A DNA stretch of 64,000 nucleotides from Burkholderiales bacterium (GCA_035560005.1 DATMAN010000031.1:70060-134059), one strand, 5' to 3'; shown: positions 8,563 to 25,335, numbered from the stretch's first letter. Notes: generated from the sequence alone by a model not told the origin. Made by a program: numbers and translations.

Positions 8563-9081
8563 ATGCGTAATCGGGACATACGCGTCGTGAGATCCATCAC
8601 CGTTGTCGCACTCTGGCTGACAGTGCATACGGCCGCCGTCTTCGCCGAACCGTGGAATCCGGGCGAGGCGCTGGACGTGTGCCTGGAGGCCGCGCTCAAA
8701 CAGCGGCCGGGTGTCGTCACGGCGTGGCGCCAGGCCGGAGGCGGGGACAAACCTCCGTATGCGGTGAGCGTGCTGAACGCGGACGGCAGGATCGCGGAGG
8801 CCACCTGTGATCCGACCAATCCCGCGAGCCTGCAGTTCAAGGACAAAGGCGGGCTGTACCGTTACGAGATGTACCGGCGCGCAACGTTTCCTGAGGCCAA
8901 GGCTCGCAGTGCAGCGCCGGAGATCTTCGTGGGTCCGGTCCGAATCATCGCAATGGACCTGAGGGTCAGCTTCACCGGCAAACCGCATTTCGTCTATCAG
9001 ATGTTCCTGCCAAGCGGTCACAAGGCGGTGGTGAGCGTCGAGGCGACGGTCGGCCGGCTGACGAAAGCCGAGGTGGAGTGA
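8563..9081 (+). CDS. Secreted protein, possibly two PepSY-like repeats
   Basis: Signal peptide (ITVVALWLTVHTAAVFA). Two units of the pattern A..A......G.V........Y.V.....G, each ending in V.V-type strands. The domain call is tentative. Confidence 0.55.
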   Translation: MRNRDIRVVRSITVVALWLTVHTAAVFAEPWNPGEALDVCLEAALKQRPGVVTAWRQAGGGDKPPYAVSVLNADGRIAEATCDPTNPASLQFKDKGGLYRYEMYRRATFPEAKARSAAPEIFVGPVRIIAMDLRVSFTGKPHFVYQMFLPSGHKAVVSVEATVGRLTKAEVE

Positions 9082-9327
9082 AGACGGGCGTGCCATGCGG
9101 CCGGCGCCGGCCGGGGCTTTCCACGGAGGGAAATCGTGCGAGCGGCCAGCGGCGATCGCTCGGCGTGGGCGACTGCTAATGCCTTCTGTCGCTGACGAAA
9201 ATCCTGTCCGTTCGGGACCGCTGGAGAATCTCAACAGTCCCTGCGCGTGAGCGGTCTGATTCTTGCATCGAATCGTGCAGCCACGCCGCGAAATCGCATT
9301 CCGTATTTTTCCCAACCTTCCGACAAC

Positions 9328-13099: not shown

Positions 13100-13969
13100 A
13101 TGGAGATCTTCGACATCTTTCTGCTGGAAGCGGTGGTCAACGGCGTGCTGCTGGGCGGCATCCTGGCGCTGCTGGCGCTGGGGCTGAACCTGATCTTCGG
13201 CGTGATCGACGTGGTGTGGATCTGCTACGCCGAGCTGATCATGATCGGCATGTACGCTGTGTACTACCTGCACGTCGAGTATTCCTGGCCGTTGTGGCTG
13301 GCCTTCGCTGCGGCCGTCGCGATGGTCTCGGTGCTGGGCATGGCGCTGCACCAGTTCGTGATCCGGCCGGTGCTCTCCGCCGAGCCGATCAATCAGCTGC
13401 TGGTCACTGGAGGCGTGCTCTTCCTGCTGCAGGGCGCGGCTACGCTCGCCTTCGGCGTGGAGTTCCGCAATCTCGGCGTCAAGTTGCCTACCTTCGAGTT
13501 GAGCGGGATGTTTCTCAGTGTGGCGCGACTGACCGCTTTCGCGATCGCGCTGGGTTGCATGATTGCCGTATACGCCTTCCTCAAACGCACGTATCTCGGC
13601 ACCGCGATCCGCGCCATCTCGCAGGACCGCGGGATCATGCCGCTGATGGGCGTGAATCCGAGCCACATCTTTCTGATCACGTCCGCGCTGGGTGGGGCGC
13701 TGGCCGGGGTCGCCGCCTGCCTCCTGGTGCTTCAGTACGACATCCACCCGGCGATCGGACTTTCGTTCGGGCCGATCGCCTTCCTGGTATGCGTGCTGGG
13801 CGGGCTCGGAAACATGATCGGCGGGTTTCTCGCGGCGTTCATCTTCGCCCAGTTCATTTCCGTGGGCGGGTATTTCTTCCACCTCGAGTGGGGCTACGTG
13901 CTGGCCTTCCTGTTCTTCATCGGTTTCATGTTCTGGCGGCCGCAGGGTTTGCTCGGAGGCAAGGCATGA
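13100..13969 (+). CDS. livH: Branched-chain-amino-acid-type ABC transporter permease (LivH-like)
   Basis: MEIFDIFLLEAVVNGVLLGGILALLALGLNLIFGV.. Polytopic membrane protein. No obvious RBS; the start directly follows the inverted-repeat element. Confidence 0.9.
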   Translation: MEIFDIFLLEAVVNGVLLGGILALLALGLNLIFGVIDVVWICYAELIMIGMYAVYYLHVEYSWPLWLAFAAAVAMVSVLGMALHQFVIRPVLSAEPINQLLVTGGVLFLLQGAATLAFGVEFRNLGVKLPTFELSGMFLSVARLTAFAIALGCMIAVYAFLKRTYLGTAIRAISQDRGIMPLMGVNPSHIFLITSALGGALAGVAACLLVLQYDIHPAIGLSFGPIAFLVCVLGGLGNMIGGFLAAFIFAQFISVGGYFFHLEWGYVLAFLFFIGFMFWRPQGLLGGKA

Positions 13970-14961
13970 GGCGCGCGCTGCCGTGGATGGGGGTCGCGCT
14001 GCTCGCTGCCGCGCCGCTTTCCGGCATGGGCAACTACCCGCTGCACCTGATGATCATGTGCCTGCTCTGGGCATTCGTTTATACGAGCTGGGCGTTGATG
14101 GGGCGGTTGGGGATGACCAGCCTGGGCCACGGTGCTTTTCTGGCGATCGGCGCCTACGGGGTGGTCATGGCCTGGAATCTGTTCTCGGTTTCCCCCTGGC
14201 TGTCGCTGCCGTTGCTGCTGGCGATCACCGCGCTGGTCGCATTCCTGATCGGGTATCCGTGCTTCCGGCTGAAGATCGTCGGGCACTACTTCGCGCTGGT
14301 CACGCTGGCGCTTGGAGAAGTCGCGCGCATGATCATTGTGGCGCTTCGGGACCAGACCGGCGGCTCGCTAGGCGCTACGCCCAACACCGCGCTCGCCGAC
14401 GCCGCGTGGTCGCTCTCGGCCCTACAGTTTTCCTCCAAGCTCGTCTGGTTCTACATCATCCTCGGCTTCTGGCTCTTCGGGCTCTGGGTGTGGGCTAGGA
14501 TCGACCGCTCGATGGCGCGGCTTGCGCTCGAGGCCATCAGCCAGGAGGAGGACGCCGCGGCATCGGTCGGGATGAACGTCACCCGGCTCAAGCTCGGTGT
14601 CACGATCGTCTCGGCGCTGATGACGTGCGTAGGCGGTGCGCTCTACGCGCAGTACCAGCTCTATGTGAATCCGGAAACGGTCTCGGGAATCGGCGTCAGC
14701 CTGCAGATGGTCTTTGGCGCGATCGCCGGCGGCATGTTCGTGCGCCTGGGCCCGACGGTGGGTGCGGTGTTCACGCTCTTGCTGGCGGAAGCGCTGCGCC
14801 TCGCGCTCGGACACGACATACACGGTCTCGATGTCACGCTCTACGGGCTCATGCTGGTGCTGTTCATCATCTTCATGCCCAAGGGCATCCTCGGCGCGGC
14901 CATCGCCGCGCTGGAGGAGCGTCGTGCGCCCAAGCCTTTACCCGCCACCTTGACGAGATAA
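13966..14961 (+). CDS. livM: Branched-chain-amino-acid-type ABC transporter permease (LivM-like)
   Basis: ATGA overlap with livH. ..TSLGHGAFLAIGAYGV.. Polytopic membrane protein. Confidence 0.9.
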   Translation: MRRALPWMGVALLAAAPLSGMGNYPLHLMIMCLLWAFVYTSWALMGRLGMTSLGHGAFLAIGAYGVVMAWNLFSVSPWLSLPLLLAITALVAFLIGYPCFRLKIVGHYFALVTLALGEVARMIIVALRDQTGGSLGATPNTALADAAWSLSALQFSSKLVWFYIILGFWLFGLWVWARIDRSMARLALEAISQEEDAAASVGMNVTRLKLGVTIVSALMTCVGGALYAQYQLYVNPETVSGIGVSLQMVFGAIAGGMFVRLGPTVGAVFTLLLAEALRLALGHDIHGLDVTLYGLMLVLFIIFMPKGILGAAIAALEERRAPKPLPATLTR

Positions 14962-14998
14962 TTCGAACCGCGATCGCTTCAGTCGGCCGCACGCTTTT

Positions 14999-15018
14999 GC
15001 ATGCTGTATTCAGAATGC
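14999..15018. promoter_or_regulatory. Candidate GntR-family operator: 20-bp imperfect palindrome, 33 nt upstream of the GntR start
   Basis: gcatgctgtattcagaatgc is self-complementary at 16/20. It shares the 13-mer attcagaatgcta (15008-15020) with the site at 17308-17320. Confidence 0.45.
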
Positions 15019-15050
15019 TAAACTCGTGCTGTTGAAATAGAGAGGCCGCA

Positions 15051-15770
15051 GTGAAGGCACTTCCGCATCAACCAACGCTGGTCGATCAAGTCTACGAGGC
15101 GATCCTGTCGGAGATCTCAGCGGGCAAGTTCGCGCACGATAGCCGGCTGATTCAGGAAGAACTCGCCGAGTCGCTGGGTGTGTCGCGTCAGCCGATACAG
15201 CAGGCGCTGCTGCTGCTGAAGAGCCACGGCATCCTGCGCGATGCACCCGGGCGCGGATTGATGGTGGCGCCGCTGGAAGCCGAATTCGTGCGCAATCTGT
15301 ACGAGGTTCGGGGCGTGCTCGACGGGCTCGCCAGCAGCAAGGCGGCGGAACGCGCAGCCGTCACCGCCCGCAAGGAGGGCCCTGCCTTCATCAAACGCGG
15401 CCGCGAAGCGGTGGCCAGCCGTTCGATCCCGAAGATGATCGCGGCCGACATGGACTTCCATTTCTTCCTCTACGGCTTGTCGAGAAACCCGCTGATCGCC
15501 GAAGCCAGTTCGCCCTATTGGAGCTACCTGCGGCGAGTGATGGGTGAGGTGCTTCTGTACGACGAGACACCGGCAGAGATCTGGGACCAGCACGAGGCCA
15601 TTCTCGATGCGGTCATCGCAGCCGACCCGCAAAAAGCAGGGCAATTGGCGCGCGAGCACATCGCCCAGGCATCGGACACGATCACCGAGCGACTGGCGGC
15701 GCGGGCACCTGCCGGGCCGGCTCGCGTTGCATTGACGCGCGTGCGGCGCAGGCGCGCCCAGGGCGTCTAG
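15051..15770 (+). CDS. GntR family transcriptional regulator (FadR/FCD subfamily)
   Basis: GTG start. wHTH (LIQEELAESLGVSRQPIQQALLLLKSHGILRD) followed by an FCD-like helical C-domain. Confidence 0.9.
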   Translation: MKALPHQPTLVDQVYEAILSEISAGKFAHDSRLIQEELAESLGVSRQPIQQALLLLKSHGILRDAPGRGLMVAPLEAEFVRNLYEVRGVLDGLASSKAAERAAVTARKEGPAFIKRGREAVASRSIPKMIAADMDFHFFLYGLSRNPLIAEASSPYWSYLRRVMGEVLLYDETPAEIWDQHEAILDAVIAADPQKAGQLAREHIAQASDTITERLAARAPAGPARVALTRVRRRRAQGV

Positions 15771-16011
15771 CAAACTTCCGCTGCACACACCGGCGCTGCT
15801 GGACGTGCTGCATCGGCGGCCCTGCAGGCGGGGCGCCGCACCACAGCAACGCGCAATCGGTGTCCGCGCCCTCGCCGCGGCTGGACGGCGACTGCCCGAA
15901 CTTCCCCTACGCGCCTGCGGAAATCGAGGCTTGTCTCACCCCGTGCGCCAAGATGCAGGAGTGTTGTTTCGGCTTTCCCTGAGCCCCGGCCCCAAGTCCC
16001 GAGTCCCGTTC

Positions 16012-17118
16012 TTACATCGCGTACTTTTTCACTGCCGCCTCGTCCCAGTCCAGACCGTTGCCGGGAGTGTCGGGCACGATGGCGTGGCCGTCTTTCGCCA
16101 GGAAGGGCTCGGCGAGGAAGGGCTCGGCCCAGTCGCTCCATTCCAGCCAGTCGGCGGATTCGCTCACGCGCAGCAGTTGCGCGGAGACCGGCGTGTAGAG
16201 GTGGCTCGACAGTGGCAAGCCCGCGGCGCCGGCGATCGCGGCCGAGCGCATCCAGCCGGTGACGCCGCCGATGCGCATGAGATCCGGCATGTAGAGGTCT
16301 GCCGCTTTGGCCAACACCGCCTTGTGGAACTCGCGCGGGCCATAGATGTTCTCGCCGATCTGGATCGGCGTTTTCATGTCGCGCGCGATCTGCGCGCAGC
16401 CTTCGTAGTTGTCGTACACGATCGGCTCTTCGAACCAGTACAGCCCCTGGTCGTCCAGCCCGTGCATGCGCTGCAGCGCCTCTCCGAAGGTGAGCCCCTG
16501 GTTGAAGTCGCTCATCAGGATGATGTCGTCGCCGACCGCGTCGCGCACGATGCGGATCGCCTCGATGTCGTCCTTCAGGCTCGGCCGGCCGAGGCGCATC
16601 TTGATCGCCCTGAAGTTGCCTTCTTCCACCAGCGACCTGGCTTCGGAGGCAAGCTTTTCTTTCGGGATCAGCCACAGGCCGTTGGTGTTGTAGGCGCGGA
16701 CCGGGCCGGGGCTACCCCCGAGCAGGGTCGCGAGCGGCAGGCCGGCGGCACGTGCGAGCGCGTCCCAGATCGCCATGTCGAGCCCGGACAGCGCGATCAA
16801 GGTCATGCCCTGGCGGCCGTTCAGATGCAGCGTCTTCATCGCCCCGCCGTACACGTCGAGCGGCGCGATCGGCTTGCCGATGAACTCCCCGGCGATGTTC
16901 TCGATCACTTGGGCGATCGGCTTCACCGCCTTGTGCACATACGGCTCGAGATAGCTGCGGCCGACCACGCCTTCGCGCGTGTGCACGTCGATCAGGATGA
17001 ACGGCCAGTTCGGATACTCGCCGACCCTGGAGACGATCGGCCGGCGCAGCGGCACGGACAGCGCCTGCACCTGCACGCTTTCCAGCGTGAGCCTGATCGC
17101 AGCGGTTCCGGTTTTCAT
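16012..17118 (-). CDS. Mandelate racemase / muconate lactonizing enzyme family (enolase superfamily) protein
   Basis: Capping domain (FILIDVHTREGVVGRSYLEPY) and barrel (AIKMRLGRP..DFNQGL..WFEEP..). GGAGGA-type RBS. Confidence 0.9.
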   Translation of the reverse strand: MKTGTAAIRLTLESVQVQALSVPLRRPIVSRVGEYPNWPFILIDVHTREGVVGRSYLEPYVHKAVKPIAQVIENIAGEFIGKPIAPLDVYGGAMKTLHLNGRQGMTLIALSGLDMAIWDALARAAGLPLATLLGGSPGPVRAYNTNGLWLIPKEKLASEARSLVEEGNFRAIKMRLGRPSLKDDIEAIRIVRDAVGDDIILMSDFNQGLTFGEALQRMHGLDDQGLYWFEEPIVYDNYEGCAQIARDMKTPIQIGENIYGPREFHKAVLAKAADLYMPDLMRIGGVTGWMRSAAIAGAAGLPLSSHLYTPVSAQLLRVSESADWLEWSDWAEPFLAEPFLAKDGHAIVPDTPGNGLDWDEAAVKKYAM

Positions 17119-17298
17119 TTTTTCAGTCCTCCGTGAAACGATCCTGAAGAACCCAAGTACGCCCGGAACGGTCTCGGCGCAACGCTGACCCCCGGCGAAT
17201 GCTTTTCCCCGTCATAGACCTGCTCAAAGATAAATCCTAAGTCTATGTTTCAAAATAATATGATGAAACCTCAGAAATAAATTCCGCACATCCGCATT

Positions 17299-17318
17299 GC
17301 ATTCGGAATTCAGAATGC
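17299..17318. promoter_or_regulatory. Candidate GntR-family operator: 20-bp near-perfect palindrome in a strongly AT-rich intergenic patch
   Basis: gcattcggaattcagaatgc is self-complementary at 18/20 (GCATTCnGAATTCnGAATGC). The preceding 60 nt (17221-17280) are about 27% G+C by hand count. Confidence 0.5.
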
Positions 17319-17360
17319 TACACTGCACGCCTGTAACGACCCTGAACAGGAGTCTGATTG

Positions 17361-17570
17361 ATGCGACCGCCACCCCCGGACCCGACTCTAGTGTTCCGGG
17401 CCTACGGCAATTCTGTCGAAGATTTCAGCCGGCAAACTCGTCATCGACGCTCGGCTGCGGCAGGAGGAACTGGCCGAGTCGTTGGGCGCTTCGCGCCAGC
17501 CGGTTCAGCACGCGCTGCTTCGCTAAATATGCACACCTGCACACATCCTGCGTGACGCAGCCCAAGCCCT
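17361..17570 (+). pseudogene. Truncated, frameshifted remnant of a second GntR-family gene (N-terminal wHTH only)
   Basis: MRPPPPDPTLV.. (compare MKALPHQPTLV). A 1-nt deletion near 17408 is followed by AILSKISAGKLVIDARLRQEELAESLGASRQPVQHALLR, then TAA at 17524 (compare AILSEISAGKFAHDSRLIQEELAESLGVSRQPIQQALLLLK). Nucleotide similarity continues to about 17570 (catcctgcgtgacgca). Confidence 0.7.
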
Positions 17571-17614
17571 GCATCTTCACTGATCAAGACAGGTTACGGT
17601 CAACGGAGAAAAAC

Positions 17615-18232
17615 ATGGACCAAGGGCAACTCAGGAGCTGCGCAGCAAAGGTATGCGGCTGCAGTGGCCAAGCATCGCAATCCCAAAGGTCGGTGGAATC
17701 CAGGCGGCGCATCTTTCGCCTAATCGCCGGCATCGCTGCCGGACTGGCTACCCGAACGGCTTTTGCAAACGACGAGGGCCAGATCCTGGTCGGAGACCGC
17801 CTCGTGCTTCACACCGCCCAAGGCGAACCGGTGGCACTGCGGCCCGCAGACGTCAAACCCGGCAAAGTGGTTCTGGCGTTTCCCTTCGACCCTGCGACCA
17901 AGAAGATTCGCAACGAATCGCGCCTGAGCAAGATCCTGCTGGTTCGGGTAGACGAATCCAGGTTCGACGAGGCGACGAGGCAACGCGCCGCTGGCGGCGT
18001 GCTGGCGTTTTCCGCCGTGTGCACCCATGCCGGCTGTGACGTCAACGCGTGGATGAAACAGACGCACAAGCTGCTTTGCTATTGCCATTCCTCACAGTTC
18101 GACCCCTACGCCTCCGGAAGGGTGGCGGAGGGGCCGGCGCCCCGCAGCCTGCCCTGGCTGCCGATAAGGCTGGAGGGTGAGGAGTTGGTGGTGGCTGGGC
18201 AACTGAGCGCTCCGGCGGGCGCGCCCGCCTAG
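17615..18232 (+). CDS. Tat-exported Rieske [2Fe-2S] domain protein
   Basis: Twin-arginine motif SRRRIFRLIAGIAAGLATRTAFA. Rieske boxes CTHAGC and CYCHSS. GGAG RBS. The longer ORF from 17297 is rejected. Confidence 0.85.
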   Translation: MDQGQLRSCAAKVCGCSGQASQSQRSVESRRRIFRLIAGIAAGLATRTAFANDEGQILVGDRLVLHTAQGEPVALRPADVKPGKVVLAFPFDPATKKIRNESRLSKILLVRVDESRFDEATRQRAAGGVLAFSAVCTHAGCDVNAWMKQTHKLLCYCHSSQFDPYASGRVAEGPAPRSLPWLPIRLEGEELVVAGQLSAPAGAPA

Positions 18233-18300
18233 ATTTCGACGACACAGCAACGGTCGTCTCCCGTGTCAGTACCTGCAACCGTGACAAGATCGGAGGAAAC

Positions 18301-20031
18301 ATGAGAAACACCAGAAAGAACAGGATCGGAGCGCTAGTGATCGCCCCCATCATGGCCATGGCGACCGCTCATGGCATGGACTACGTGCCAGTCACCGACG
18401 CCAGGCTGAAAAATCCTGAACCGGCCAACTGGCTGCAGTATCGCGGCAACTACGCTGGCTGGGGCTACAGTCCGCTGAAGCAGATCAACTCCAAGAACGC
18501 GAAGAACCTGACCGTGGCCTGGTCGTTCGCTACCGGGCAGGCGGAGGGCCATCAGTCGCCGCCGATCGTCAACAACGGCTATATGTTCATCACCACGCCG
18601 GGCAGCCAGGTGATCGCCCTCAACGCCAAAACCGGCGAAGAGATCTGGCGCTTCAAGAAAGAGCTGCCGAGGGATCTGCTGCAGCTGCACCCGACCAACC
18701 GCGGCGTAGCGCTGTATGGCGACAAAGTGTACTACACCACCCTCGATACCTTCTTGGTCGCGCTGGACGCCAAAACCGGCAAGCAGGTGTGGGAGTCGAA
18801 GATCGGCGAGTGGAAGCACGGGTACTACACCACGGTGGCGCCGCTCGCCGTCAAGGGCAAGATCCTTGTCGGCATTTCCGGCGGCGAGATGGGCGTTCGC
18901 GGATTCGTCAAGGCATTCGACGCCGAGAGCGGCAAGGAAGCGTGGGTATTTCACACCGTTCCCGCACCTGGAGAACCGGGCGGCGACACTTGGCCCGGCG
19001 AAACTTACAAGACCGGCGGCGGCGCCACCTGGGTCACCGGCACATACGACCCGGAAACCAACCTAACCTTCTGGGGCACCGGCAACCCCGGCCCGTGGCC
19101 CACCGAAGGCCGCAAGGGCGATAATCTCTACACGACCTCGGTGGTGGCGCTCGATGCGGATACCGGCAAACTCAAGGGCTACCACCAGTACCACTGGCAC
19201 GACGCCTGGGACTGGGATGAGGTGTCCGCGCCGGTGCTCATCGACACGGAGATCGGCGGCAAGAAGGTCAAGACCGCCGTGCACGCCGGCCGCAACGGCT
19301 ATCTCTGGGTACTGGAGCGCACGAAGGACAAGATGAACTTCCTCGCCGCGCACAAGTATGTCGAGCAGGATGTGTTCACCAGCATCGATCCGAAGACCGG
19401 CCGGCCGTCCTACGATCCCGCGCGCACCCCGGGCAAGGTGGCGACCACGTTCTGCCCGTCGCTGTGGGGCGGCAAGGACTGGCTGCCGGAAGCCTACAAC
19501 CCGGACACCGGCCTGTTCTACATCCCAGCCACCAACAACCTGTGCTCCGAATTGCCCGAGCCCGAAGAAGGCCTTGAGTACCAACCGGGTGGACTGTACA
19601 TCGGCTATCCGATTCCCGACGTACTGGGCAGCCTGCGCCTGGGCAAGAATGCGCACAAGAGCATCGGAGAAGTGCAGGCGTGGAACCTGAAGACCGGCAA
19701 GCAAGTCTGGACGCACACTTACAAGGGCATCAACTGGGGGCCGCTGCTGACCACCGGCGGTAACCTGGTGTTCGGTGGAGGCACGGCCGACCGTAAGTTC
19801 CGCGCCTTCAACGCTACTACCGGCGAAGTTGTGTGGGAGTACCCCACGCCGTCGGGCGTAACCGGAGTGCCGACCTCCTACGAGATCGATGGCGTCCAGT
19901 ACGTGGCCGTGCAATCAGGCTGGGGCGTGGATGCGCAGCGCATGCAAGCCGGCATCGATGCCGCCACCAACACCAAGACCAATGTCCCGCAGGGCGGCAC
20001 GGTCATGGTGTTCAAGCTGGGCAATAAGTAA
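18301..20031 (+). CDS. PQQ-dependent dehydrogenase, methanol/ethanol (quinoprotein ADH) family
   Basis: Signal peptide. Propeller W-motifs. GISGGEMGVRG (metal Glu), GTGNPGPW (Asn), HDAWDWDE (D304-W-D306). GGAGG RBS. Confidence 0.9.
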   Translation: MRNTRKNRIGALVIAPIMAMATAHGMDYVPVTDARLKNPEPANWLQYRGNYAGWGYSPLKQINSKNAKNLTVAWSFATGQAEGHQSPPIVNNGYMFITTPGSQVIALNAKTGEEIWRFKKELPRDLLQLHPTNRGVALYGDKVYYTTLDTFLVALDAKTGKQVWESKIGEWKHGYYTTVAPLAVKGKILVGISGGEMGVRGFVKAFDAESGKEAWVFHTVPAPGEPGGDTWPGETYKTGGGATWVTGTYDPETNLTFWGTGNPGPWPTEGRKGDNLYTTSVVALDADTGKLKGYHQYHWHDAWDWDEVSAPVLIDTEIGGKKVKTAVHAGRNGYLWVLERTKDKMNFLAAHKYVEQDVFTSIDPKTGRPSYDPARTPGKVATTFCPSLWGGKDWLPEAYNPDTGLFYIPATNNLCSELPEPEEGLEYQPGGLYIGYPIPDVLGSLRLGKNAHKSIGEVQAWNLKTGKQVWTHTYKGINWGPLLTTGGNLVFGGGTADRKFRAFNATTGEVVWEYPTPSGVTGVPTSYEIDGVQYVAVQSGWGVDAQRMQAGIDAATNTKTNVPQGGTVMVFKLGNK

Positions 20032-20070
20032 CTGCCAGACGGCAAGACGCGCGTCGTCTGCTGCTTCGAA

Positions 20071-20110
20071 GACGCGGACCCGTAATTACCGGGTCCGCGT
20101 CATTGTTTCC
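20071..20110 (+). terminator. Stem-loop downstream of the PQQ dehydrogenase gene
   Basis: gacgcggacccg / taattac / cgggtccgcgtc: a perfect 12-bp stem followed by attgtttcc. Confidence 0.6.
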
Positions 20111-20213
20111 GGATGGTCGTGAAATCAGAAGCTTCTGTTCGCCGTTCGCAGAGCACTGCGCCATCGACTCAGATCAGGATTGCGTGCGTTGGACGAAAGA
20201 AATGACAGCCCCG

Positions 20214-20380
20214 CAAAGGCTCCAGATGCCTGGCGCCGACCACGCCTTCGCGGGCGAGCACGTCGATCAAAACAGGTGGTCACTTGGGATAGACCCCCAA
20301 GGACCCGATCGGTAGCGCAGCCCTAACGATAGTGTCCGGTCCCGGTCGCGAGCGCGTGTGTCTTCTTTTCCAAGCGTCAT
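20214..20380 (-). pseudogene. Frameshifted N-terminal remnant of a second mandelate-racemase-family gene
   Basis: MTLGKED..TLSLGLRYRSGPWGSIPSDHLF, a frameshift, then LIDVLAREGVVGARHLEPL (compare ALSVPLRRPIVSRVGEYPNWPFILIDVHTREGVVGRSYLEPY). About 60 nt aligns at roughly 80% nucleotide identity (tgatcgacgtgc..cgcgaaggcgtggtcggc). Confidence 0.7.
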
Positions 20381-20591
20381 GCCTAACTGCTTGTCAGGCT
20401 CTACGGACTCATGGCGATCCCTGAAAACGCAAGAGCTCGAAACAGGTAGCGTCCGGAAGAAGACGCGCACGGACCTGGGCCGCCAGTAGCAGGAAAGCCT
20501 GTCGATCAACGGATTGAGACCTCGGCATCGGCGCCAGGCAGATGGCTTCGGCCGACGCGCAGAATTCTTGACCCTGGAGGCGGAAACACCC

Positions 20592-21902
20592 ATGTCGCAA
20601 ATCGCACGCGCCGCACCGCTGCCCCAGCCCGTGGCAGCTGAGAAACTCGCTTACCAGAAGGTCACGCTGCGGCTCGTGCCCTTCCTCTTCCTCTGCTATC
20701 TCGCCGCCTATCTGGACCGGGTGAACGTCGGCTTTGCCAAGCTGCAGATGCAAGACGATCTGGGTTTCAGCAGCACCGTCTACGGTCTTGGCGCGGGCAT
20801 CTTCTTCGTCGGTTACGTGCTGTTCGAGGTGCCGAGCAACATGATCCTGCACAAGGTCGGCGCAAAGCTGTGGATCGCACGCATCATGATCACCTGGGGT
20901 CTGATTTCCGGCGCGATGATGTTCGTGGAAACGCCGACGCAGTTCTACCTCCTGCGCTTCCTGCTCGGCGTGGCGGAAGCCGGGTTCATTCCCGGCGTGC
21001 TGCTCTACCTCACTTATTGGTATCCGGCGGCGCGCCGCGGTCGCATCGTCGCCCTGTTTCTGGCGGGCATTCCGGTCTCCAGCATCTTTGGCGGCCCGGT
21101 CTCCGGCTGGATTCTCAATACCTTCGCCGATGTCGGCGGTTTGCGCGGCTGGCAGTGGCTGTTCGTGATCGAAGCGATGCCGTCGGTGATTCTGGGCATT
21201 CTCACGTTGTTTCTTCTCGATGACGGGGTGCGCGACGTCAAGTGGCTCACCGAAGCCGAAAAACGCATCATCAGCGACCGCATCGCGGAAGAAAACCAGG
21301 AAAAAGGCGGCCACGCCGGTTTCGGCGATGCCTTCAAGAGCGGGCGCGTCTGGCTGTTGAGCGTGGCCTATTTCTTCTTTGCGAGCGCGATCTACGTCAC
21401 CAGCTTCTGGCTGCCGACGCTGATCAAGGCGCGCGGCGTGAACGACCCGCTGCACATCGGACTGCTAGTCGCCATCCCTTACACGGTGGCGACGATCGCG
21501 ATGATCTGGACCAACGTGCACGCCGACCGCACCCGCGAACGCCGCTGGCACGCCGCCTTGCCGTGCTTCCTCGCCGGAGTCGGGCTGCTGCTGAGCGCCC
21601 TGCCGGGGCAAGCTCTGGTTTACGGCATGCTGGCACTCACCTTGGCCACCGCGGGTGCCTGCGCCGCAGTGGCCGCCTTCTGGAGTCTGCCCGCAGCGTT
21701 CTTGGTCGGGGCCGCGGCGGCGACGGGCATCGCGCTGATCAATTCGCTGGGCAACGTCGCCGGATTCGTCAGCACCTCGCTGGTCGGGTGGATCAGCGAT
21801 CTGACTGGCAGCGCCCAGGCGAGCCTGTACCTGTTCGGTGCACTGATGTTCGTCGGTGGCGCGATGGTTCTGGCGATTCCGGCAAAGCTGGTTAACAAGT
21901 AA
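20592..21902 (+). CDS. MFS transporter, anion:cation symporter (ACS)-like
   Basis: LVPFLFLCYLAAYLDRVNVGFAKLQMQDDLGFS..GAGIFFVGYVLFEVPSN. 12-TM pattern. GGAGG RBS. Confidence 0.9.
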   Translation: MSQIARAAPLPQPVAAEKLAYQKVTLRLVPFLFLCYLAAYLDRVNVGFAKLQMQDDLGFSSTVYGLGAGIFFVGYVLFEVPSNMILHKVGAKLWIARIMITWGLISGAMMFVETPTQFYLLRFLLGVAEAGFIPGVLLYLTYWYPAARRGRIVALFLAGIPVSSIFGGPVSGWILNTFADVGGLRGWQWLFVIEAMPSVILGILTLFLLDDGVRDVKWLTEAEKRIISDRIAEENQEKGGHAGFGDAFKSGRVWLLSVAYFFFASAIYVTSFWLPTLIKARGVNDPLHIGLLVAIPYTVATIAMIWTNVHADRTRERRWHAALPCFLAGVGLLLSALPGQALVYGMLALTLATAGACAAVAAFWSLPAAFLVGAAAATGIALINSLGNVAGFVSTSLVGWISDLTGSAQASLYLFGALMFVGGAMVLAIPAKLVNK

Positions 21903-21926
21903 ACCTTACTCCTACGCGCACAACCC

Positions 21927-23582
21927 ATGGACGCTTCCAAGTACGGAACTCTTTACCAATCCTTGCAGCGCACCGCCGCGCGGTTCGGCGACCGGACGGC
22001 CTATGCGGTGCCGCCGATGGCCGGCCGCGCCTACCACCCGGAGGGCTGGGAGGTCACCTGGGCGCAGACCCTCGCTGCGGTCGAGGAGAAGAAGCGCATC
22101 TACGCGAACGCCGGCTATGGCTACGGGCACCGGGTCGCGATGCTGTTCGACCAGCGGCCGGAATTCTTCTTTCACTATTACGCGCTGAACGCGCTCGGCG
22201 CCGGCGTCGTCCCGATCAATCCCGATTACCGCGCCGACGAGATCCGCTATGTCGTGGAGCACTCGGAGGCGAGCCTCGCGCTCGCGATCGACAGCCGGCT
22301 CGCCGAGATCGAGGCGGTGGCGCGAGCGATCGGCGGCGTCCTGCCGGTGGTGTCCTTCGAGCGCTTTCCCGACCGTCTGCCTGCGCCGGCGCGCCCGGCG
22401 CAGGCTGGCACGCCGGGTCCCGACACCGAGGCCGCGCTGCTCTACACCTCGGGTACCACCGGGCGCCCGAAGGGCTGCATCCTCACCAACGAATACTTCC
22501 ACAGTTTCGGCGCCTGTTATCTTTCGCTCGGCGGCCGCCTGGAGTTTCGCGAAGGCGAAACACGCCTGTACAACCCGCTGCCCTTGCACCATGCCAATGC
22601 GCTGTCGGTCTCCACGCCCGCCCTGCTGCTGTGCGGCGGCTGCCTGATCTTTCCCGACCGCTTCCACGCCAGCACCTGGTGGAAGGACCTGATCGCCACC
22701 CGCGCGAACGCGGCCCAGTTCCAGGGCATCATCCCCAACATCCTGCTGAAACTGCCGCCCTGCCCGGAAGAGCGCCAGCACAGCGTGCGCTTTTCGCTGT
22801 GCGCCGGCGTCGAGCCCAGCCAGCATGAACTCTTCGAGAAGCGCTTCGGCTTTCCCGTCGTCGAGATGTGGGCAATGACCGAGACCGGTCGCCTCATCAG
22901 CGACAGCGTCGAGCCGCGCTCGATTCACACCCGGGCATTCGGGCGGCCCAACGCCTGGGTCGAGGTACGTGTAGTCGACGAGCAGGGTCGCGACCTGCCG
23001 CCCAACCAGCCCGGCGAAATGCTCATCCGCCACAGCGCGCAGACGCCGCGCAAGGGCTTCTTCTCCGGCTACCTCAAGAATCCCGAGGCGACCGAAGAGG
23101 CCTGGCGCGGCGGATGGTTCCATACCGGCGATGTCGTCGCGCGCGACGACACCGGCATGCTGTACTTTGTCGATCGCAAGAGAAACATCATCCGCCGCTC
23201 GGGCGAGAACATTGCCGCGGCCGAGATCGAGGCCTGTCTGACCGCGCACGACAAGGTGAAGCAGGTCGCTGTCATCGCCGCGCCCGACGAGGTGCGCGAG
23301 GAAGAAGTCATGGCCTGCGTGATCGCCAAGTCGCCCGAGGATGTCGCCACCGAAGAGGCGCGCAAGGCGCTGGCGCAGGCGCTGTTCGACTGGTGCTTCG
23401 AGCGCATGGCCTACTTCAAGGCACCGGGCTGGATACTGTTCGTCGACAGCCTGCCCACCGGCACGTCGGCCAAGGTGCAGAAGATCCACATCTTCCCCAC
23501 CGGTACCGACCCGCGCAAGCAGTCCGGCGCGATCGACCTGCGCGCGCAGAAGAAACAGACAAAGCCGGCCGTCTCCCACTGA
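21927..23582 (+). CDS. AMP-dependent synthetase/ligase (acyl-CoA synthetase family)
   Basis: AMP-binding motif LLYTSGTTGRPKG. ..GWFHTGD..DRKRNIIRRSGENI.. with a C-terminal SAKVQK. Confidence 0.9.
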   Translation: MDASKYGTLYQSLQRTAARFGDRTAYAVPPMAGRAYHPEGWEVTWAQTLAAVEEKKRIYANAGYGYGHRVAMLFDQRPEFFFHYYALNALGAGVVPINPDYRADEIRYVVEHSEASLALAIDSRLAEIEAVARAIGGVLPVVSFERFPDRLPAPARPAQAGTPGPDTEAALLYTSGTTGRPKGCILTNEYFHSFGACYLSLGGRLEFREGETRLYNPLPLHHANALSVSTPALLLCGGCLIFPDRFHASTWWKDLIATRANAAQFQGIIPNILLKLPPCPEERQHSVRFSLCAGVEPSQHELFEKRFGFPVVEMWAMTETGRLISDSVEPRSIHTRAFGRPNAWVEVRVVDEQGRDLPPNQPGEMLIRHSAQTPRKGFFSGYLKNPEATEEAWRGGWFHTGDVVARDDTGMLYFVDRKRNIIRRSGENIAAAEIEACLTAHDKVKQVAVIAAPDEVREEEVMACVIAKSPEDVATEEARKALAQALFDWCFERMAYFKAPGWILFVDSLPTGTSAKVQKIHIFPTGTDPRKQSGAIDLRAQKKQTKPAVSH

Positions 23583-23601
23583 GTGAAACAAGGATGATCC
23601 G

Positions 23602-25335
23602 ATGCTTCCTCCTCCGCTGACTCCCGACTGCACCGCCGGCGTCATCGCCCGCTTTCTGAAGGCGCGCAGTGTCGACCGCATCTTCGCCCTGTGCGGCGGC
23701 CACATCATGCCGATCTGGATGCGTGCGGATGCCGAGGGCATTCGCATCATCGACGTGCGCGACGAGCGCGCCGCCGTTTACATGGCCCATGCCCATAGCG
23801 AGCTGACCGGCGGCCTCGGAGTGGCGCTGGTCACTGCCGGCCCCGGCATGACCAACGCGATGACCGGCATCGCCAACGCGCACGTGTCCCGCGCGCCGGT
23901 GCTGGTGCTCTCCGGCGGGCCGCCGCGCCCGCAGGAAAACCGCGGCGGTCTTCAGGATCTGCCCCACGCCGACATGGCGCGTCCAATCACCCGTTATGCG
24001 CGCACGGTGCGCGAACCCGCACTGGTGCTGCAAGAACTGGACGAAGCGGTTTCGCGCGCCTTCGGTCAGGGCGGTGAGCCGGGACCGGTCTATCTGGACT
24101 TTCCGACCGACACGCTGCGCGCGGAGGTGCCGAAGCCGCTGCAGCTCGAAGAACACTTCCGGGTGAAACCGAAGCCGGTGCTGCTGCCCAACGACAACGA
24201 CGTGTCGGCAGCGGTGGAACTGCTGTGGTCGGCGAGGCGCCCGCTGGTGATCAGCGGTCGCGGCGCGCGCGGTGCGGCGCGGGAGTTGCGCGCGCTTCTG
24301 GACGCGCTTGGCGCGCCTTATCTCGACACCGGCGAAAGCAAGGGACTCATTGCCGAAGATCATCCAAGCGTGGTCGCTGCAATGCGTGGCGCGGTGATGG
24401 GCCAGGCCGACGTGGTGGTGACCGTCGGCCGGCGGCTGGATTTCCAGCTTGCCTACGGTTCGCCGGCGGTGTTCGGCGAGGCGAAGTTTCTGCGCATCGG
24501 CGATGTGCCCTCGGAGATCCGCGACAACCGGCGCGGCGCCGTCGAGCTTTTCGCGCAGCCGGCGGCGGCGCTGGCCGCCATCGTGCGCAAGGCGGGCGGC
24601 CGCGCGCCCTCGGTCGACCGCGCCTGGGCCGATGGCCTGCGCGAGAGGCATCTGGAGCGCGCGCAGAAGCTCAAGGCCTCGATGAGCACCGCCGCCTCGG
24701 ACGGTGAAGGACGCATTCATCCGAACCGGCTGCTCGCCGAGCTGCAGGCGCAGCTCAAGCCCGATGCGGTCATCATCGCCGACGGCGGCGATTTCCTCAG
24801 CTTCGCGCGCGTCGGTCTCGCCTGCTCGGTCTACCTCGATCCCGGCTCGCTCGGTTGCATCGGCATCGGTACGCCGTTCGGCGTGGCCGCCAGCCTGGCG
24901 CTCCCCGACAGGCAGGTGGTGGTCGCCACCGGCGACGGGGCGTTCGGCTTCAATGCGATGGAGATCGACACAGCGGTGCGTCACAAGGCGCCGGTGCTGA
25001 TCGTGGTGGCCAACAACGGCGCCTGGCAGATCGAGGTGCACGACCAGAGCGACACCCACGGCAAGGTCGTCGGGACAAAGCTGCAGTTTTCCGATCACGC
25101 GCAGATGGCGCGCGCCTTCGGCATGCACGCCGAGCGGGTGGAAAGGGCGGAGGACCTGAAGGGCGCGATTGCGCGCGCGCTGGACAATCGTCCCGCGCTG
25201 CTCGATGTCGTTGTGTCGCCCGAGGCGCGCTCCTCCGACGGCAAATCGGGGTTGGCGTGGGTGCCCGATCTGCAGCCGCTCGCCGCGTGGGACGACGCGG
25301 AGCGCAGCTGGCGAAGCGCGGTCCGTCATCGCTGA
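23602..25335 (+). CDS. Thiamine diphosphate-dependent enzyme (acetolactate synthase / oxalyl-CoA decarboxylase / 2-hydroxyacyl-CoA lyase superfamily)
   Basis: N-terminal Pyr domain (VALVTAGPGMTNAMTGIANA). C-terminal ThDP motif GDGAFGFNAMEIDTAVRHKAPVLIVVANNGAW. Confidence 0.9.
   Translation: MLPPPLTPDCTAGVIARFLKARSVDRIFALCGGHIMPIWMRADAEGIRIIDVRDERAAVYMAHAHSELTGGLGVALVTAGPGMTNAMTGIANAHVSRAPVLVLSGGPPRPQENRGGLQDLPHADMARPITRYARTVREPALVLQELDEAVSRAFGQGGEPGPVYLDFPTDTLRAEVPKPLQLEEHFRVKPKPVLLPNDNDVSAAVELLWSARRPLVISGRGARGAARELRALLDALGAPYLDTGESKGLIAEDHPSVVAAMRGAVMGQADVVVTVGRRLDFQLAYGSPAVFGEAKFLRIGDVPSEIRDNRRGAVELFAQPAAALAAIVRKAGGRAPSVDRAWADGLRERHLERAQKLKASMSTAASDGEGRIHPNRLLAELQAQLKPDAVIIADGGDFLSFARVGLACSVYLDPGSLGCIGIGTPFGVAASLALPDRQVVVATGDGAFGFNAMEIDTAVRHKAPVLIVVANNGAWQIEVHDQSDTHGKVVGTKLQFSDHAQMARAFGMHAERVERAEDLKGAIARALDNRPALLDVVVSPEARSSDGKSGLAWVPDLQPLAAWDDAERSWRSAVRHR

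Follow-up and report, generated by a model that had tools for sequence, protein, structure and literature searches.

Inner ends of a probable direct duplication of a divergent MR–GntR control region flank a Rieske–PQQ dehydrogenase module in a Burkholderiales bacterium

Introduction

The textbook core of GntR operators is T-N-GT-N3-AC-N-A, and repressors of the FadR (FCD) subfamily of GntR proteins use palindromic operators that overlap the promoter. Lanthanide-dependent quinoprotein alcohol dehydrogenases of the PedH/XoxF type are marked by an extra Asp (D-W-D), vicinal Cys-Cys residues, and a nearby cytochrome c gene. Campbell-type integration, or tandem duplication with insertion at the junction, leaves an insert bracketed by direct repeats of one segment. 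Among catabolic clusters, the 2-hydroxyisobutyryl-CoA lyase cluster of Actinomycetospora chiangmaiensis encodes a GntR regulator, the lyase, a 2-HIBA-CoA ligase, MpdC, and MpdB (PMC7176365).

The locus described here occupies positions 17299-20380 of a 64,000-nt stretch of DNA from a Burkholderiales bacterium (GCA_035560005.1 DATMAN010000031.1:70060-134059), the whole of which is referred to as the window. It was studied in a comparison of 180 loci, in which relatives are designated by L-numbers and L089 is the closest relative. The intact GntR genes of the window and L089 are designated G1 and G2, respectively, and the GntR and MR 5' stumps of the window are designated g' and m'.

Organization of the Locus

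The features of the locus and its surroundings are as follows.

14999-15018, no strand: operator-like palindrome (op) 5' of G1, two mismatches to GCATTCTGAATTCAGAATGC
15051-15770, plus strand: intact GntR/FCD regulator G1 (Pfam GntR and FCD), identical in strain variants
15781-15958, plus strand: relic of an acyl-CoA ligase (AMP-binding) gene, approximately codons 198-264 (blastn, Smith-Waterman, tblastn, blastx)
16012-17118, minus strand: intact MR/MLE (enolase-superfamily) gene (Pfam MR_MLE_N and C), colinear with L089 from 15967 on
17299-17318, no strand: operator palindrome 5' of the GntR stump and Rieske-PQQ genes, one mismatch to GCATTCTGAATTCAGAATGC
17361-17565, plus strand: GntR 5' stump g', codons 1 to ~68 (tblastn, HMM, nucleotide alignment), also present in L089
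17615-18232, plus strand: Rieske [2Fe-2S] protein with twin-arginine signal RRRIFRL (Pfam)
18301-20031, plus strand: PQQ dehydrogenase, methanol/ethanol family (TIGR03075, 569 bits vs. a cutoff of 480)
20071-20101, plus strand: intrinsic terminator of the Rieske-PQQ unit, a 12-bp stem with 10 G-C pairs, conserved in L089 and L088
20135-20380, minus strand: MR 5' stump m', ~codons 1/8 to 91, frameshifted (tblastn, HMM, Smith-Waterman), colinear with the L089 MR stump (z = 8.6)
20381-20476, no strand: 96 nt with no assignment; the same position in L089 holds intergenic region, operator, and GntR G2 (~1.07 kb)
20477-25335, plus strand: conserved frame, including the sequence 5' of MFS; colinear with L089 (85%) and L169 (86%)
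20592-21902, plus strand: MFS transporter, within the conserved frame
21927-23582, plus strand: acyl-CoA ligase, directly 5' of the lyase, within the conserved frame
23602-25335, plus strand: TPP-dependent 2-hydroxyacyl-CoA lyase (NF058623, 823.7 bits vs. a cutoff of 600)

This layout is seen in six independent contigs. A first-pass annotation had described two decayed 5' ends flanking the Rieske and PQQ dehydrogenase genes, with only these genes and a terminator between them. Both observations hold, and nucleotide alignment places the similarity of each stump to the intact genes far above that of shuffled sequence. Also in keeping with that annotation, which had noted no IS or integrase, a Pfam scan of the 21.7-kb neighborhood found no transposase or integrase domains of the kind that would mark an IS, transposon, integron cassette, or integrative element. 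A repeat search at the joints revealed no meaningful inverted repeats; the gene stumps are the only repeats there, and the same search independently picked up the upstream motif as well as both stump/gene pairs (D1, D3, D6, D8). The lyase scores above its family cutoff and is accompanied by an adjoining acyl-CoA ligase and a GntR regulator, features that assign the locus, by sequence, to the 2-hydroxyacyl-CoA lyase clusters.

Two Pseudogene Remnants

When the intact GntR protein was used as a tblastn query, it matched 17407-17559 (residues 17-65, 67% identity, E 3e-12), and a GntR-family HMM matched residues 16-65 of the stump (E 1e-15). The local nucleotide alignment scored 101, compared with 20.8 +/- 2.6 for shuffles. 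The lesions in this stump are a 2-nt gap near 17406, previously read as a 1-nt deletion near 17408, a 7-nt insertion, and a stop at 17524. The stop was already recognized in the initial reading, which placed the fading of similarity at ~17570, close to where homology ends (~codon 68, 17565). No FCD-like sequence was detected between the stump and the Rieske gene. The stump retains winged-helix homology, has lost its frame and FCD domain, and shows relaxed constraint, which are the marks of a GntR/FCD pseudogene relic.

The MR stump was matched by tblastn of the intact MR protein at 20309-20217 (residues 29-59, 55% identity, E 4e-5) and by an MR HMM (E 7e-6). A lenient Smith-Waterman comparison with the intact MR gene widened the match to 20189-20363, or approximately residues 8-70 (z = 14.3). 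Homology to the N-terminal capping domain is retained, the barrel domain is absent, and the frame is broken, as in a relic; no MR homology was found in the stump past approximately residue 91. The proposal that the minus strand from 20380 to ~20214 encodes the N-terminus of a second racemase is upheld from about codon 8, whereas the first ~7 codons (TLSLGLRYRS...) have no significant similarity. The adjacent 20381-20476 interval lacks significant similarity to anything compared.

Between strain variants, the GntR stump diverges by 1.5%, as opposed to 0.1-0.4% in genes, although the counts are small. Both stumps fall within 1.5-2.7% when a 4-nt indel in the MR stump is included, and they evolve like noncoding DNA. 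That they function instead as small genes or as a structured RNA is highly improbable. An ORF of 64-65 codons does extend from the ATG of the GntR stump, at 17358-17555 in the window and likewise in L089, but the two ORFs lie mostly in different frames and share no common protein sequence, and the strain-level rate of substitutions and indels is high. Stumps were sought in L169, L172, and L090 and found in none of them, although L172 has the operator-Rieske arrangement, and an Rfam search for structured RNA returned no match. Both stumps are true pseudogene remnants, and the set of lesions in the window differs from that in L089.

Operator and Promoter

The 13-mer originally reported to recur at 17308 proved to be part of a 20-bp palindrome, GCATTCTGAATTCAGAATGC, for which the two sites in the window compare with 0 expected by chance. 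The motif is confined to loci with this GntR, where it lies directly 5' of the GntR or Rieske gene; the negative control consisted of 78 loci with an MR gene at 63-86% identity and no synteny, which were also used for HMM building. A weak sigma-70-like promoter, TTGCAT-16 nt-TACACT, can be read by eye at 17297-17324, overlapping the operator, and a consensus scan for sigma-70 promoters gave no strict match. Transcription would begin in the operator region, and G1 would bind there. Rieske-PQQ is probably transcribed today from the operator and promoter of the GntR stump, with the stump as its 5' leader. The stump may have survived because the operator and promoter lie on it, and as a leader it would keep the module under GntR control. 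A dead piece of a regulator gene would in this way have come to provide a new operon with its promoter and leader.

The Rieske-PQQ Dehydrogenase Module

The Rieske gene is located directly 5' of the PQQ dehydrogenase gene in nearly all homologs. The nearest solved structure for the Rieske protein is the Thermus soluble Rieske protein, while that for the dehydrogenase is PedH (6ZCV, E 1e-113). The dehydrogenase keeps the D-W-D motif (WDWDEV aligned to WDFDGV of PedH), and its membership in the methanol/ethanol PQQ family together with the extra Asp two residues past the catalytic Asp marks it as lanthanide-type. The vicinal Cys-Cys is absent; QLHPTNRG is found at this place in all 120 of 120 close homologs, and the neighboring gene encodes the Rieske protein rather than a cytochrome c. 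In L169, the place of Rieske-PQQ is taken by an alternative enzyme, PQQ2, which has the Cys-Cys and a cytochrome c neighbor. A search of the available literature found no relevant report of a Rieske partner for PQQ dehydrogenases. This Rieske-partnered clade without Cys-Cys is more intriguing than the stumps themselves. It appears to be a widespread, lanthanide-type clade that always occurs with a periplasmic Rieske protein, and it is placed here inside a 2-hydroxyacyl-CoA lyase pathway. These features suggest an electron-transfer partner that has yet to be described and, in Burkholderiales-like bacteria, a route for diols or 2-hydroxy acids.

In L089-L093, L096, L146, and L179, Rieske-PQQ is found alongside genes for GntR, the ligase, and the lyase. 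It is present in L172 and absent from L178 within the same frame, the break lying just 3' of the operator, and it occurs in unrelated contexts in L085-87. These comparisons indicate that Rieske-PQQ is a promoter-less module of GntR/acyl-CoA ligase/2-hydroxyacyl-CoA lyase clusters and is not foreign to the neighborhood. The earlier suggestion that a two-gene cassette replaced the interior of a gene pair was therefore apt with respect to its cassette-like presence and absence (L172/L178). A foreign origin of the cassette is not supported, since the module is a regular member of the regulon in relatives.

A Duplicated Control Region

Comparison with L089 provides the context in which the stumps can be understood. 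A tblastx comparison of the entire window with L089 gave only noise. Window 15967-20117 is colinear with L089 7674-11822 at 86%, and 20477-25322 is colinear with 13137-17993 at 85%. L089 also contains the GntR stump (9074-9256) and, between the PQQ terminator and operator-GntR G2, an MR stump on the same strand. The L089 MR stump matches MR 5' ends at z = 8.5-8.8 and the window MR stump at z = 8.6 (reverse-complement control, z = -0.3), with a weak signal at the protein level (HMM E 0.19, blastx E 1e-3). It is joined through the intergenic region and the 20-bp palindromic operator to the intact GntR gene. The first and second repeat copies of L089 align at z = 46.5 (z = 8.8 for the MR part), and the layout is present in at least two independent long assemblies. 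One contiguous chromosomal segment thus brackets the module as direct repeats in L089, whereas the right repeat of the window keeps only the MR part; with the right-hand operator-GntR missing from the window, L089 alone shows the repeat in full.

Since the L089 MR stump runs into the operator and intact GntR gene, the stumps can be viewed as the inner ends of a direct duplication of ~0.7 kb, and the position of the GntR stump as divergent neighbor of the intact MR gene suggests that the duplicated unit was the divergent MR-operator-GntR region. We consider it probable that a duplication of this unit brackets Rieske-PQQ. The unit would have run from codon ~91 of MR through the start of that gene, across the intergenic region, the promoter, and the 20-bp GntR operator, as far as codon ~68 of GntR. 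The comparison indicates that the stumped structure is older than the window/L089 split, and the duplication would have occurred in their common ancestor around the promoter-less Rieske-PQQ module, in a GntR-regulated cluster for 2-hydroxy-acid or diol catabolism (PQQ dehydrogenase and Rieske protein, MFS transporter, acyl-CoA ligase, and 2-hydroxyacyl-CoA lyase). The left repeat would have retained an intact MR and a truncated GntR gene, and the right repeat a truncated MR gene and, in L089, an intact GntR gene. The route may have been one-step duplicative insertion or single crossover, or else the unit may have been duplicated in tandem and the middle then lost. The window lineage would later have shed the right-hand operator-GntR and would now depend on G1, beside the ligase relic, with the MR stump inert.

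The first-pass annotation instead took the stumps for what is left of a paralog of the adjacent convergent pair: a full second GntR'/MR' pair whose interior, the two 3' halves, was replaced by a Rieske-PQQ cassette, considered here as a foreign one. The stumps are indeed convergent with only Rieske, PQQ, and the terminator between them, the module is present or absent elsewhere, and the same end product would result if the divergent unit had been duplicated in tandem and its middle then replaced. This reading is at odds with the L089 context, in which the upstream side of the MR stump is the MR-GntR-stump intergenic region and operator, leading into intact GntR. Identity also speaks against it, as both stumps are nearer to L089's genes than to the window's own (GntR, 71% vs. 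67% in amino acids and 0.74 vs. 0.67 in nucleotides; MR, 65% vs. 55%), which indicates that G1 is not the parent of the GntR stump. Rieske-PQQ is, moreover, native to the regulon. Finally, the pair at 15051-17118 was correctly described as two intact convergent genes, but the ligase relic in its spacer was overlooked. The relic matches AMPb of L169 by blastn (E 7e-11), Smith-Waterman (z = 8.2), and tblastn and blastx (E 1e-5 to 2e-4), with a core at 15839-15907 (residues 221-243), and its presence makes the pair itself a secondary junction. Taken together, these points render replacement of the interior of a convergent pair decidedly unlikely.

The duplication accounts for the stumps and not for the origin of G1 or the ligase relic. 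Relocation of L089's G2 to the other side as G1 is disfavored by a dS of 1.40 between them, compared with 0.53 for the flanks, a test that is not decisive because dS of the GntR genes is raised (0.94-1.40) in all three pairwise comparisons. Derivation of the window from L089 by a clean deletion is likewise not supported, since no match was found for the 137 nt at 20340-20476, which stand in place of the right-hand operator-GntR, and neither end of the 1.07-kb segment of L089 aligns with them.

A further proposal, which we hold to be unlikely, is that an MR-operator-g'-Rieske-PQQ-m' block moves between genomes by homologous recombination and that the window gained it by double crossover with a resident MR gene between G1 and MFS, with MR and m', and also the operator with the GntR 5' end, serving as arms. 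At synonymous sites, the window and L089 diverge by 0.367 (bootstrap 0.316-0.422) in the block and by 0.528 (0.469-0.588) in MFS, ligase, and lyase, a difference for which codon bias could account. L089 homology stops ~45 nt beyond the MR stop and inside m', yet no chimeric breakpoint is demonstrable in m'. Relative to the intact GntR gene, the block is on one side in the window lineage and on the other in that of L089, although only these two contexts are known and the right-hand frame is common to both. The flanks of L169 are closer to L089 (dS 0.27-0.41), and yet L169 is without the block; no circular or excised form was seen. On a bolder reading, the stumps would be the working ends of a recombination-mobilized module in which Rieske-PQQ, the MR gene, the GntR-stump operator/promoter, and the MR stump travel together, which is in our estimation an unlikely role for them. 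With MR, GntR-stump, and MR-stump homology arms, such a block could enter any genome with a related MR or GntR locus and, if so, would land pre-wired to the resident GntR, without a transposase or integrase.

Neither an unduplicated precursor (MR-operator-GntR-MFS without Rieske-PQQ) nor an excised circle was found among the 180 loci, the sole empty/occupied pair (L178 vs. L172) belonging to a different frame. The case is one of ordinary cluster evolution. With duplication of the divergent unit as the preferred reading, a catabolic cluster would have been rewired without mobile-element genes, through modules shuffled beside a shared operator, with a duplicated control region left over. For annotation, the gain is three previously unannotated relics and a probable regulatory site.

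Comparison With Known Systems

The predicted arrangement resembles Campbell-type integration, or tandem duplication with junction insertion, in that direct repeats of one segment stand on both sides of the Rieske-PQQ-terminator insert, each of them continuous with just one of its two genes, so that L089 has one intact and one truncated copy per gene. It differs in having no vector, phage, or IS sequences, and its repeats, at about 58-78% identity, are old and have decayed in part, the right repeat of the window being without operator-GntR.

The regulator resembles FadR-subfamily repressors in its GntR and FCD domains and in a predicted palindromic operator that overlaps a putative promoter. 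A perfect 20-bp palindrome lies 40-60 nt 5' of the regulator or target operon in every regulator-bearing locus, the window copies having 1-2 mismatches, but this predicted operator has no obvious fit to the textbook GntR core.

The dehydrogenase shares with PedH/XoxF enzymes its TIGR03075 membership, best match to PedH, and D-W-D Asp, and differs in lacking Cys-Cys and in having a TAT-exported Rieske partner in place of a cytochrome c gene. As in the A. chiangmaiensis cluster (PMC7176365), an alcohol-oxidizing module adjoins the genes for a TPP-dependent 2-hydroxyacyl-CoA lyase, an acyl-CoA ligase, and a regulator of the GntR family. In the window, however, the place of the NAD(P)-dependent MpdB/MpdC is taken by a periplasmic PQQ dehydrogenase and its Rieske partner, and the cluster adds an MFS transporter and an MR-family enzyme in a Burkholderiales-like host.

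Organization of the Locus and Its Putative Operator

In the window, a Rieske protein gene and a PQQ dehydrogenase (PQQ-DH) gene lie between two truncated stumps, the 5' part of a GntR gene (17361-17565, plus strand) and that of an MR/MLE enolase-superfamily gene (~20135-20380, minus strand). The surrounding features are as follows.

15051-15770, plus strand: intact GntR/FCD regulator (Pfam), G1
15781-15958 (core 15839-15907), plus strand: unannotated acyl-CoA ligase (AMP-binding) relic, in the 241-nt spacer between G1 and MR
16012-17118, minus strand: intact MR/MLE enolase-superfamily gene, MR
17615-18232, plus strand: Rieske protein with TAT signal
18301-20031, plus strand: PQQ-DH
20071-20101: strong terminator after PQQ-DH

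An MFS transporter, an AMP-binding ligase and a thiamine pyrophosphate (TPP) enzyme follow PQQ-DH in that order, and six independent contigs show the same layout. As the first-pass annotation stated, the stump-to-stump interval holds Rieske, PQQ-DH and the strong terminator only; no transposase or integrase was found near the gene pair.

The 13-mer previously seen to recur at this locus is part of a 20-bp palindrome, GCATTCTGAATTCAGAATGC, present at 14999-15018 and 17299-17318 (0 copies expected by chance). All fetched loci that bear this GntR have a perfect or near-perfect copy a short distance upstream of either GntR or Rieske, and none occurs in ~75 loci carrying only MR. The palindrome is taken to be the putative operator of GntR. 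It overlaps a weak promoter-like element, TTGCAT-16 nt-TA(A/C)ACT, read by eye; a consensus promoter scan found no promoter.

The Stumps Are Relics

Homology of both stumps to the intact genes is supported by several approaches. At the protein level, 17407-17559 is 67% identical to residues 17-65 of the intact GntR (E 3e-12) and 20309-20217 is 55% identical to residues 29-59 of the intact MR (E 4e-5), and family HMMs returned E-values of 1e-15 and 7e-6, respectively. Nucleotide local alignments scored 101 (GntR) and 64 (MR), far above shuffled sequences (~21 ± 2.5), and a repeat search independently returned both stump/intact-gene pairs. With a lenient alignment, the MR stump can be followed over 20189-20363 (~residues 8-70, z = 14.3); its first few codons are statistically unrecognizable. 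The frameshift described in the GntR stump is present as a 2-nt gap rather than a 1-nt deletion. Strain variants differ 5-10 times more in the stumps than in the genes, with a 4-nt indel in the MR stump, which identifies both stumps as relics rather than genes.

Probable Duplication of a Divergent Control Unit

The stumps had been interpreted as what is left at either end of a decayed duplicate of the adjacent intact GntR-MR pair. This reading did not survive comparison with relatives. A metagenome scan with PQQ-DH, followed by mapping, yielded the closest one, L089, which has a PQQ-DH 96% identical in protein sequence; its gene order recurs in an independent assembly (L175). Two colinear blocks link L089 to the window: 15967-20117 (L089 7674-11822, 86% nucleotide identity) and 20477-25322 (L089 13137-17993, 85%); beyond 25322 the window is unrelated to L089 or to another relative, L169. 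Directly beyond the left end of the shared block, at the MR 3' flank, L089 encodes a 217-aa protein that weakly matches an HNH-endonuclease Pfam family (6919-7572, equivalent to L174 4663-5316, minus strand).

The GntR stump falls within the first block and has decayed further in L089 than in the window. Between the blocks, the window has 359 nt with the MR stump, whereas L089 has 1.3 kb comprising a same-strand MR 5' relic, an intergenic stretch, an operator and an intact GntR, G2. The L089 relic aligns with MR 5' ends at z = 8.5-8.8 and with the window's stump at z = 8.6 (reverse complement, z = -0.3; blastx E 1e-3). The second intergenic stretch is homologous to that between MR and the GntR stump, and the two L089 copies match each other at z = 46.5. 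The L089 order is MR (intact)-intergenic-operator-GntR (1 to ~68), then Rieske, PQQ-DH and terminator, then MR (~91 to 1)-intergenic-operator-GntR (intact)-MFS-ligase-lyase. Rieske-PQQ is thus bracketed by a ~0.7-kb direct duplication of a divergent MR-operator-GntR unit, of which the stumps are the inner ends. The stumps are duplication scars of this control unit, common to the sister lineage, and the window's intact MR belongs with the GntR stump rather than with G1.

G1 was rejected as parent of the GntR stump. The GntR stumps are nearer to G2 than to G1 in nucleotide identity (0.74 vs 0.67 and 0.70 vs 0.61) and in protein identity (71% vs 67%), and the MR stump is 65% identical to the MR of L089 vs 55% to that of the window. 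Upstream of G1, homology to other GntR upstream regions begins only at the operator, and this region abuts an ABC permease stop codon. The ligase relic of the G1-MR spacer was detected by blastn (E 7e-11), by local alignment (z = 8.2, with core residues 221-243 at E 1e-5) and by blastx; in L172 and L178, the normal order has the ligase directly after GntR. The intact G1/MR pair is therefore itself a secondary junction. The GntR-ligase portion of the cluster must once have been present here in a second copy, since deleted. An 8-nt indel separates the window from strain variants L001/L002 within the spacer (15771-16011), which fits non-coding relic DNA.

Rieske-PQQ as a Regulon Module

The first-pass view of Rieske-PQQ as a two-gene cassette was borne out in part: the pair is cassette-like, and its implied foreign origin is not supported. 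Rieske lies directly upstream of PQQ-DH in almost all homologs down to ~56% identity, and the pair is linked to this GntR, ligase and lyase in many arrangements: operator-Rieske-PQQ-GntR-ligase-lyase (L092/L172); MFS-ligase-lyase-Rieske-PQQ, then GntR on the opposite strand (L090/L091); ligase, lyase, GntR on the opposite strand, then Rieske-PQQ (L093); and MR-GntR-Rieske-PQQ (L179). L178 (9852-9997) and L172 (7129-9997) provide a clean empty and occupied site for a 2.9-kb Rieske-PQQ module within a common frame of AsnC, periplasmic binding protein, operator, GntR, ligase, lyase and MauG, the break falling just downstream of the operator. L169, with flanks 86% identical to the window, carries a different PQQ-DH and a cytochrome c between GntR and MFS, and in L085-87 the Rieske-PQQ pair occurs in unrelated contexts. 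The pair therefore behaves as a module that has no promoter of its own and plugs into this regulon, rather than as an alien insert. The operator-bearing GntR stump most likely supplies it with a putative GntR-controlled promoter and a ~290-nt leader.

In L089, MFS-ligase-lyase come after operator-GntR; at 20381-20591 of the window, the corresponding promoter region ahead of MFS is gone, and no operator copy precedes MFS. GntR may no longer control the lyase half of the pathway, or expression of that half may require transcription to continue through the 20071-20101 terminator.

The window and L089 have diverged in a mosaic pattern.

Synonymous divergence (dS) between the window and L089, with bootstrap range
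MR + Rieske + PQQ: 0.37 (0.32-0.42)
MFS + ligase + lyase: 0.53 (0.47-0.59)
G1 vs G2: 1.40 (0.95-2.27); only suggestive, as GntR dS is raised in all comparisons

The flanks of L089 and L169 are closer (dS 0.27-0.41), yet their dehydrogenase modules differ. The 137 nt at 20340-20476 show no match to either end of the extra L089 segment, so a clean deletion of operator-G2 is not supported; a homologous double crossover, with MR and its stump serving as arms, would account for both homology break points. The duplication itself may have arisen by duplicative insertion, by a single crossover, or by tandem duplication followed by loss. Members of this cluster family have been rearranged repeatedly around a single operator. 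The locus is a further example of a known mode of genome evolution.

A Predicted 2-Hydroxy-Acid Pathway

In all 120 closest PQQ-DH homologs, QLHPTNRG replaces the vicinal Cys-Cys of classical quinoprotein dehydrogenases and the lanthanide-type D-W-D is kept; in nearly all, the gene immediately upstream encodes a TAT-exported Rieske protein. The alternative PQQ-DH of L169 has Cys-Cys and a cytochrome c neighbor (L169 10870-13246). This co-occurrence suggests that the Cys-Cys-less clade uses the Rieske protein as its dedicated electron acceptor, a role for which no paper was found in the literature library searched.

By analogy, a five-step pathway is inferred. An alcohol or diol would be oxidized by periplasmic PQQ-DH with Rieske, and the resulting 2-hydroxy acid would be imported by MFS, activated by the ligase and cleaved by the lyase to formyl-CoA and a carbonyl compound; MR may racemize or dehydrate a related acid. 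Against NF058623, the NCBIfam equivalog for 2-hydroxyacyl-CoA lyase, the TPP enzyme (23602-25335), of betaproteobacterial type and adjoining the acyl-CoA ligase, reaches 824 bits, well above the cutoff of 600. This kind of lyase has been characterized in an actinobacterium, whose cluster contains GntR, lyase, 2-HIBA-CoA ligase and diol/aldehyde dehydrogenases (PMC7176365), and this lyase route for 2-hydroxy acids seems to be widespread in uncultured Burkholderiales.
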